NCBI GenBank assembly: GCA_964016885.1
Contig: OZ024743.1
Coordinates: 266,104,001-266,168,000 of the forward strand
Length of the DNA: 64,000 bases
DNA from: Eledone cirrhosa
Taxonomy: Eukaryota
Reading direction: 5' to 3'
Below, piece after piece: positions 27,301 through 28,466 of this stretch. The notes under the pieces were generated by a model that was not told the DNA's origin, did no database searches, and saw nothing but the letters and a program-made list of their open reading frames with translations. The position numbers and the translations under genes were made by a program. Each line of letters begins with the position of its first letter. Position 1 is the first letter of the stretch.

Positions 27301-28466
27301 TTTTAACTTTAATTATATCTCATAAAATAATACAACTGGCTTTTCCACATAATACATATTGTTAGCCCCCCAAACACTTAAATTGGGTTTATATTAAAAT
27401 ATAACCTAAGTGAGATGGTTACCAGTCAGAGATTAGCTTTGAACTATCTCTGTTATTGTATTAATATTTTACTCTTGATTGGCCAGAGGTGTTTATTTCC
27501 AGGTATCTTATGAATTTGACTTTCCGTATTTATTACTGTTGTGCGATATTGTGGTTTTTATTGATTGCAACTTCTCTGATTTTTAGCCTCAGAAAATATA
27601 TATATGCCTATGTATATAATTACATGCATACATTTATTATTTTTTTTAATTAATTGAGTTCTTTACACGAGGAATTGATATTAGTTTTGAAATAACTAAT
27701 TAAACCGCGTGTGTTTTATATTTTACTCTTAATTCGGCCGGAGATTTACATTCCCATTTGCCCTTTAAAGCATAACTTTCCGTATTTACTGCGGTTACGA
27801 GATGCGGTTTCTTATTCAGGTACAACCTCTGATTTTAGCCTAAGAAAATATCTATATGCGTGTGTAATTTATACACGCATATATTTATGTTTTTAATTTC
27901 AATTGAGTTCTTAACACGTTGGATTGATAATGTTTTCGAAAAAACTGATTAACCCGCGTGTATATTATTTTTTTTCCTCCTTTCGTGGATCGTAGTTGTC
28001 TCCCCTTCCTGCTTAGTGACGCTATAATACTTCCTCAGTCAAAAACTGCTGGAATTTCAAATTTGCCGGTCATTCGATGCGGGAACGAGCAACTTAACGG
28101 ACATGATTTTTGACTGTGGTAAGAAATGTTTTTCTTATATCAAAGTTTATTGGGCTTCCACTGATGATTTATAAGCGCCCACCTAAATATATTCTTACAT
28201 GAATGTATATTAGGCTTCTACATAAACTGGAAATATTCTCCGAATTTGTAGAAAACTTATAATGAAACAATTGTTTGGAAAGAGAGATATATTTTAACTT
28301 TAATTATATCTCATAAAATAATACAACTGGCTTTTTCACATAATACATATTGTTAGCACCCCAAACATTTAAATTGGGTTTATATTAAAATATAACCTAA
28401 TGTTTGTTGAGTGAGATGGTTACCTGTCAGAGATTAGCTTTAAACTATCTCTGTTATTGTATTAAT
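27301..28466 (+). mobile_element. Retrozyme/pLTR-like non-coding element, 991 nt period, about 165 bp terminal direct repeat
   Basis: 27301-27465 repeated at 28292-28466; internal about 250 bp tandem duplication 27465-27960; intact HHR just upstream of the second repeat; (TA)n on both sides. Confidence 0.8.
28156..28280 (+). ncRNA. Type I hammerhead ribozyme with 96 nt stem II
   Basis: ttcca CTGATGA tttataag...cttataat GAAA caattg TT tggaa. Confidence 0.8.

Follow-up and report, generated by a model that had tools for sequence, protein, structure and literature searches.

A 1.2 kb noncoding hammerhead element inserted in (TA)n that resembles a nonautonomous derivative of Hydra-clade PLEs

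Positions 27,301 to 28,466 of the 64-kb window (the whole stretch of DNA that we analyzed) hold an insertion of about 1.2 kb that has (TA)n on either side and carries a single hammerhead ribozyme. We are highly confident that it is an insertion of the Penelope-like element (PLE) type, whether it arose as a more-than-unit copy or from truncated ends that were joined. Its affiliation with the Hydra-clade PLEs, to which the traits of the ribozyme, the (TA)n target, the place where the element ends, and a tail motif all point, was missed in a preliminary description, where the element was read as more-than-unit-length copying of a circular or tandem RNA. That reading is still the most likely one: the element is probably a nonautonomous, more-than-unit copy of a tandem or circular RNA, although this copy has a single ribozyme and could not circularize by itself. 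In the specific form that we tentatively prefer, a nonautonomous derivative of a Hydra-clade PLE entered (TA)n in one insertion from a linear, head-to-tail RNA template that had been cut by the ribozyme. The evidence in hand for this form consists of a terminal repeat, the ribozyme motif, the TA flanks, microhomology at the 5′ end, the absence of coding remnants, and a folding signal. What is unusual in the element is its branched, 96 nt stem II and the strong folding of its 747 nt basic unit (z about −6).

The element is bounded by a direct repeat, and self-comparison of the window with blastn aligned 27296-27465 to 28287-28466 at 91.7% identity over 180 columns (E 6e-72). The repeat of roughly 165 bp previously noticed at the 5′ end is therefore real. 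Its first 6 nt (ATATAT) are common to the flanking (AT)n, since they double as the last 6 nt of the target run on the 5′ side (27280-27301), so that the repeat starts between +12 and +18 from the predicted cleavage site, a range that includes the +16 proposed earlier. The 5′ copy (27302-27465, plus strand) spans 164 bp and the 3′ copy (28293-28466, plus strand) 174 bp; they differ by 5 substitutions and one 10 nt gap, which lies in the 5′ copy, and the period of the repeat is 991 on the 5′ side of the gap and 1001 on its 3′ side. Exactly two units of an internal duplication begin where the 5′ repeat ends (27461-27724 against 27715-27973, 74% identity, period 254 bp): a decayed copy, segment A (27466-27719, plus strand; folding z −0.35), and a structured copy, segment A′ (27720-27973, plus strand; folding z −4.8), with long hairpins at about 27837-27894 and 27914-27961. 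These are followed on the plus strand by the unique, noncoding segment B with a long predicted stem (27974-28155), the ribozyme (28156-28280), and a spacer behind stem I (28281-28292) that ends in the first 6 nt TA run 3′ of the cleavage site (28287-28292). The element ends with the 3′ repeat at +191 from the cleavage site, where reverse transcription presumably started, and is followed by the target run on the 3′ side, (TA)n at 28467-28517 and then (GA)n at 28519-28603.

The ribozyme has the anatomy of a type I hammerhead, with cores of the CUGANGA and GAAA kind (CUGAUGA at 28161-67 and GAAA at 28264-67), an NUH site, three helices, and an open stem I. Stem I consists of 5 bp (28156-60/28276-80), stem III is an 8 nt perfect palindrome (28267-74), and cleavage is predicted after 28275 (GUU). 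A relaxed type I descriptor matched the element once and none of 2000 dinucleotide shuffles of it, and the window five times and none of 20 window shuffles; in the element, the descriptor search placed the ribozyme on one strand only. The core had been described as intact. Both conserved strands and the NUH site are indeed present, but the canonical G10.1-C11.1 pair is replaced by U·U, and the cleavage site is GUU. The U·U at 10.1/11.1 is a known natural hammerhead variant (PMC3088659), and the axolotl ribozyme HHR_Amex2, which has this mismatch, cleaves (PMC7229834). Likewise, the 96 nt reported for stem II do separate the two cores (28168-28263, plus strand), but they form a U·U opening mismatch and a 7 bp stem that opens into a three-way junction with two hairpins, predicted at −23.4 kcal/mol (z −5.5, 0 of 500 shuffles). 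Stem III is predicted at +1.7 kcal/mol as a hairpin and −8.2 kcal/mol as a two-copy duplex; a stem III that is unstable alone and stable between two hammerhead copies is a known dimer design (PMC4209133). In the monomer, the active ribozyme fold is predicted to lie 4.7 to 8.0 kcal/mol above the minimum because 28151-55 can pair with 28177-81, which speaks against activity, and no contact between loops 1 and 2 was recognizable.

Rfam gave no match at the gathering score across the window and found none of its hammerheads; in the element at E up to 10, it gave 19 matches, all of them chance hairpin matches and none to a ribozyme family. The core search in PMC8557442 permitted a spacer of only 7 to 17 nt, and the “long helix II” of PMC13725137 refers to 6 to 8 bp. 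Our literature search, outside of which most subscription papers lay, found no paper on PLE hammerheads whose stem II is close to 100 nt, on nonautonomous Hydra elements, or on octopus hammerhead elements. A 2017 paper reportedly deals with dimeric PLE hammerheads.

The odd core of the element can be understood as a set of clade traits, since U·U and GUU are frequent in published Hydra families. By our by-eye count of Files S1/S2 of PMC8557442, U·U occupies 10.1/11.1 in 14 of 25 families, U stands at the cleavage site in 10 of 25, and a preference for (TA)n is found in 26 of 27. The element also shares with the Hydra-clade PLEs, as described there, a sense type I hammerhead near the 3′ end, a tail behind the ribozyme, and a partial tandem arrangement. 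It has the features expected of a Hydra-clade PLE derivative in its insertion into (TA)n and in its sense hammerhead near the 3′ end with tail and pseudo-LTR. In contrast, stem II reaches at most 26 nt among the 25 Hydra families listed in PMC8557442, so a length of 96 nt is not a Hydra-clade trait in the published set. Stem III also differs, being mostly 9 to 10 nt in the published families. PMC8557442 includes one mollusc Hydra element, Hydra-1_Obim from Octopus bimaculoides. Within the window, most motifs have a stem II of 20 to 51 nt, and three families stand out with 83, 85-86, and 96 nt.

Coding relatives are close at hand. Three reverse transcriptase (RT) and/or endonuclease remnants in the window (13572-15883, 38061-38482, and 54749-55270) match a Hydra-like protein profile, and the remnant at 13572-15883 has the Hydra-clade marks of RT before endonuclease, DKT, and CxCx5C. 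The same marks ruled out an assignment of the window's coding PLE to Naiad. The 8 nt stem III palindrome is identical in the element and in the hammerhead of the element to which this remnant belongs. Beyond this palindrome and a shared short motif, the element has no blastn similarity to the three coding Hydra remnants of the window. Mean column identity is 44% among 7 hammerhead tails, and about a dozen hammerhead-bearing pieces in the window end on or near (TA)n. A Pfam search of 8 window proteins gave only sub-threshold GIY-YIG and an exo/endonuclease, and 4 more gave nothing relevant. The check for an adjoining PLE ORF that the preliminary description had suggested was answered in part: the element itself has no such remnant, but another family, at 37398-39161, with an 85-86 nt stem II, adjoins an endonuclease remnant. 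A long stem II on a coding remnant means that such a stem is no proof of a noncoding unit. What the hammerhead does in PLEs that have an endonuclease is described as unclear (PMC8557442 section 15).

The window as a whole is AT-rich DNA of animal type with many TA, CA, GA, and TACA microsatellites, a repeat landscape reminiscent of octopus genomes, and it is crowded with related insertions. A decayed Hydra-clade PLE at 13392-17640 (plus strand) retains RT, DKT, CxCx5C, GIY-YIG, and a 1.5 kb 3′ UTR; its hammerhead, at 17395, is mutated and has an inverted 170 bp copy at the 5′ end of the element, which ends on (TA)n at +207 from the cut site. At 37398-39161, two truncated Hydra ends form a head-to-head pair with the endonuclease remnant 38061-38482 (minus strand), hammerheads with an 85-86 nt stem II, and ends at +54 and +199. 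A third Hydra family (54590-56690, plus strand) comprises an endonuclease remnant, a hammerhead at 56590 with a 31 nt stem II, and an inverted long tail, and it has a short relative at 17819-18243 with an altered core at about 18143. The PLE remnant at 58185-61016 (plus strand) has RT thumb and GIY-YIG motifs, no RT core that we could see, and a minimal hammerhead at about 60670. In this remnant, the piece behind the hammerhead recurs as a 220 bp direct terminal redundancy across an internal TA run (13 mismatches in 233), which makes it a 1.08-mer of a 2.6 kb unit, laid out as in the 27,301-28,466 element.

Other pieces carry hammerheads alone or in pairs. Lone hammerheads with perfect palindromic stem III are found at 31340-31790 and 35655-35900 (both minus strand; stem II of 83 and 51 nt, respectively), and each of these pieces ends near a TA run. 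At 62416-62836, a perfect 146 bp inverted pair holds two identical hammerheads (36 nt stem II) and ends at +43 and +132; its 0 mismatches indicate a very young insertion. A doubly inverted element at 21165-22130 has two hammerheads of another type, with a branched stem II and a long stem III, that could work as monomers. A family of inverted composite insertions on (TA)n occupies 10696-11559 and 24403-24997, with a likely hammerhead by eye at about 11370 and 24805, and four short related pieces on (TA)n with fold-back ends (12692-12875, 43516-43683, 54413-54529, and 57918-58103) seem to carry the 3′ half of a hammerhead. Positions 10.1/11.1 are mismatched in several of the window's hammerheads (C·A, A·C, U·U), in which stem III frequently forms a perfect palindrome of 8 nt. 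The window also contains a SINE-like repeat of about 180 bp that is dispersed in numerous copies (17928-18094, 20542-20929, 22790-22927, 28878-28945, 30164-30518, and 33497-34011), a decayed non-LTR retrotransposon at 48144-51205 (minus strand) with exo/endonuclease- and RT-like frames, and a 415 bp inverted pair with 94% identity (8522-8936/12216-12630, about 3.3 kb apart) that is related to 29362-29515.

We considered what the terminal repeat represents, and it looks like a PLE tail or pseudo-LTR and not a target duplication. Partial tandems of this kind are the ordinary form in which Hydra-clade PLEs insert (PMC8557442 section 6). Other hammerhead elements in the window end about 43 to 54 or 132 to 207 nt past the cut site, often with both in one insertion, and the element's end at +191 falls in the long class. 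These distances leave out a mis-parsed motif at 36556; the hammerhead at 35800, whose cut site was set 3 nt early, ends at about +72, outside both classes. The two classes match the two internal RT starts that create the tail of a PLE (PMC11167929). A tail motif of the RCTY...AGYRC type lies at +55 in the element (28330-28359, plus strand), a position common to other hammerhead tails in the window. Because the motif was chosen after inspection of the data, its frequencies should be read with care: the strict form occurs in 3 of 8 tails and, for the element's tail, in 1.0% of 5000 shuffles, while the relaxed form occurs at +51 to +62 in 6 of 8 tails and arises in 7 to 21% of shuffles. By eye, in the supplement of PMC8557442, this motif also stands at the very start of the Hydra-1_Ajap consensus and, in three other consensi, behind the ribozyme; this suggests that the next head-to-tail unit begins with the tail. 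The idea that the repeat is the remnant of a decayed ORF start was rejected, as 158 of 200 shuffles scored as well and none of the 8 tails was significant.

It is very improbable that the repeat is host DNA, whether from a large target site duplication (TSD) made on insertion, which the preliminary description had named as the refuting case, or from segmental duplication at a later time. Each copy has (TA)n on its outer side, and the succession of TA and then GA on the 3′ side is a common composite microsatellite with 5 other examples in the window. A TSD would also place the end of the element only 11 to 17 nt past the cut, under every other measured hammerhead end (at least 43 nt), and within the repeat, the tail motif lies at the offset where it is expected.

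The claim that the element lacks a credible ORF held up. Its longest ATG ORF has 47 codons, a profile-HMM built from 35 near full-length proteins had no match with E of 10 or below, and the full set of 151 PLE-like proteins gave only 3 tblastn matches, with E of 6 to 8. An ORF with RT and C-terminal GIY-YIG that bears DKT and CxCx5C, the hallmark of an autonomous Hydra-clade PLE, is present elsewhere in the window and absent from the element. There is also no LTR and, as judged by eye, no PBS/PPT, and a tRNA scan found no tRNA genes in the window. No second copy of the element was found by blastn elsewhere in the 64-kb window. A scan of bacterial and archaeal genomes with the ribozyme arms gave a single match, on a Eubacterium contig, which we took as chance since it has neither ribozyme anatomy nor wider similarity.

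Folding predictions single out part of this noncoding body. The 747 nt basic unit (27720-28466) gave z −6.1 as a circle and −6.7 as a linear molecule (0 of 25 shuffles each), and the 991 nt circle gave z −4.9 in sense (0 of 30 shuffles) and −2.6 in antisense. All 7 comparisons with PLE ends in the window (two of which overlap, in the 17 kb element) fell between z −1.5 and +0.2. The stem II domains of the other long window ribozymes were also less convincing folds (z −1.4 for 86 nt and −0.4 for 83 nt). The signal sits in A′, part of B, and the ribozyme, but not in A, consistent with a basic unit of roughly 740 nt plus an extra copy that has decayed. These results uphold the earlier view of an internal duplication of about 250 bp and a basic unit of about 740 nt. 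The predicted structure is branched, and includes a helix (28409-17/27720-28) that closes the 747 nt circle. A 9 bp helix links the end of the repeat to the start of A and A′; in a weak test of this junction helix, its best ranks among 695 positions were 17 and 39 with the 3′ copy, and the 5′ copy gave no gain. No covariation was seen between A and A′, where 73 pairs comprised 0 both-sided changes, 6 one-sided, 17 broken, 47 same, and 3 gaps.

Among known systems, animal non-LTR retrozymes are like the element in being noncoding, low in GC, PLE-derived, and strongly folded by prediction, with a type I, dimer-type hammerhead (PMC7229834; bioRxiv 10.64898/2026.07.22.740005). The element is accordingly noncoding, with a type I hammerhead and no LTR/PBS/PPT, but its 1.17 units and one ribozyme stand against the two or more units, each with a hammerhead, of a tandem retrozyme. 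Animal retrozymes have also been seen as circular RNA, whereas the element is known here from DNA sequence. Its unit of 740 to 990 nt is larger than the 170 to 400 nt of PMC7229834, which bears out part of the claim that it exceeds typical animal retrozymes. However, consensus units of 51 to 972 bp have been reported (bioRxiv 10.64898/2026.07.22.740005) in a tandem search that stopped at period 1000, and the element's unit is thus at the upper end of animal retrozyme sizes and not a new size class. Plant LTR retrozymes likewise have terminal direct repeats around a noncoding body, but carry a type III ribozyme inside both LTRs, a 4 bp TSD, and PBS/PPT (bioRxiv 10.64898/2026.07.22.740005); the element's ribozyme is type I, single, and outside the repeat. 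Chlamys PLEs such as MRC1 offer ORF-less PLE derivatives with pseudo-LTRs and head-to-tail copies (PMC8557442 section 10). They belong to a green algal clade mostly without hammerheads, and their nonautonomous members share 3′ sequence with an autonomous partner, whereas no such partner for the element was found in the window. The Poseidon element PAc of Anolis (PMC11167929) is a model for an internal RT start 3′ of the ribozyme, AT-rich nicking, and a tail. It differs in being coding, in its clade, and in its tail of 30 to 40 nt. Taken together, the element works like a retrozyme or a nonautonomous PLE, and this copy lacks both the tandem units of the former and the RT-endonuclease ORF of the Hydra-clade PLEs.

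How might such a copy have formed? Under the reading that we prefer, a source locus with head-to-tail units would yield a transcript longer than one unit. The anatomy of the ribozyme and the behavior of known dimer hammerheads suggest that the upstream unit would be cut, setting the 5′ end of the RNA, while the downstream ribozyme would stay uncut; the short palindromic stem III would favor two-copy pairing for cleavage. By analogy with the mechanism of Poseidon PAc, the RT-endonuclease of a coding Hydra element may nick (TA)n in trans, and reverse transcription may begin inside the RNA, 191 nt past the downstream ribozyme. The RT would then traverse an entire unit and continue into the upstream one, stopping just short of the cut end, and joining of the cDNA would take place at the first TA microhomology, 12 to 17 nt behind the cut site. 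The 6 nt TA run at which the upstream copy starts is indeed the first one past the cut site, and the 58185-61016 PLE also starts at its first TA run there (1 of 2 runs). Such starts fit an RNA 5′ end made by the ribozyme, a microhomology join, and a loss of about 11 nt, with modest odds: for the element, the run is 1 of 5 such runs in the unit, and its 5′ end is therefore weak evidence. Several points count against this explanation. A single copy was found in the window, it has no sequence similarity to the coding Hydra remnants there, the active ribozyme fold lies above the predicted minimum, A and A′ lack compensatory changes, and the repeat yields no ORF-start remnant. Hydra 3′ UTRs in the window, from ORF end to ribozyme, measure about 0.5, 1.3, and 1.5 kb and could hold the whole noncoding body. 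In addition, insertion of Poseidon PAc in vitro did not require its protein-assisted ribozyme, and the cut site was not the end point of any read (PMC11167929), which counts against a ribozyme role in insertion.

The UTR lengths bear directly on the possibility that two 5′-truncated 3′ ends of a coding Hydra PLE were joined head to tail, through a template jump or a second insertion at the same TA site, with the 991 nt being 3′ UTR only. 5′ truncation and composite insertions are the PLE norm (PMC8557442) and fill the window, the coding remnant at 37398-39161 shows that a long stem II can belong to such an end, and the sequence at 27465/27466, where the pieces would meet, is AT-rich. That junction retains no TA run, however, and exactly two duplication units begin there. 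The other aligned two-piece hammerhead insertions (7 pairs in 6 elements) are inverted, folding of the whole unit is much stronger than that of the PLE ends used for comparison, and the 9 bp helix from the repeat end to the start of A/A′ points the same way, weak as its test was. The divergence of the repeat copies, 5/164 (3%), lies inside the range of 0 to 8.6% for the 7 inverted pairs of the window, and hence cannot separate one template copy from two. We regard joined ends as unlikely on balance, while the foremost competitor of the linear multimer.

We find it less credible that the element is a true non-LTR retrozyme, in which a dimer was cut twice and ligated into a circle of 740 to 1000 nt, around which a Hydra RT ran 1.17 times; of the two, we favor the linear multimer over the circle. 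The circular route has been proposed for PLEs and seen as circRNA for animal retrozymes (PMC4209133 and PMC7229834), and it agrees with the strong, sense-biased folding, the helix that closes the 747 nt circle, the dimer-type stem III, and the activity of the axolotl ribozyme with U·U. Yet there is one ribozyme and no tandem array is seen, linear and circular folds score alike, the paired fraction (0.58 to 0.60) is no higher than that of some controls (0.43 to 0.63), and a circle would not be expected to give an end near the cut site. An endogenized viroid-like circular RNA would also be noncoding, structured, above unit length, and equipped with a hammerhead. We consider this origin extremely improbable, since the ribozyme is on one strand only, the fold is branched and not rod-like, and the ribozyme type, target, and tail agree with the PLEs of the window.

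Should the element turn out to be a pair of truncated UTR fragments, it would be common transposon debris whose ribozyme is odd. Its long, branched stem II nonetheless matters for annotation, given that Rfam found no hammerhead in the window. A bolder proposal, which we hold to be doubtful, is that the element represents a large (740 to 990 nt), structure-selected retrozyme family that rides on Hydra-clade PLEs, with a branched domain in stem II and insertions that start just behind the cut. If true, it would be a genomic footprint of a PLE hammerhead that defines the 5′ terminus of the RNA in transposition or generates a circle, and the long-stem-II ribozymes (83 to 96 nt, in three families within 64 kb) would form a lineage-wide class that short-loop descriptors and Rfam have missed. 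Genome data alone would test the role of the hammerhead in a family whose upstream partial copies end right behind the cut site.
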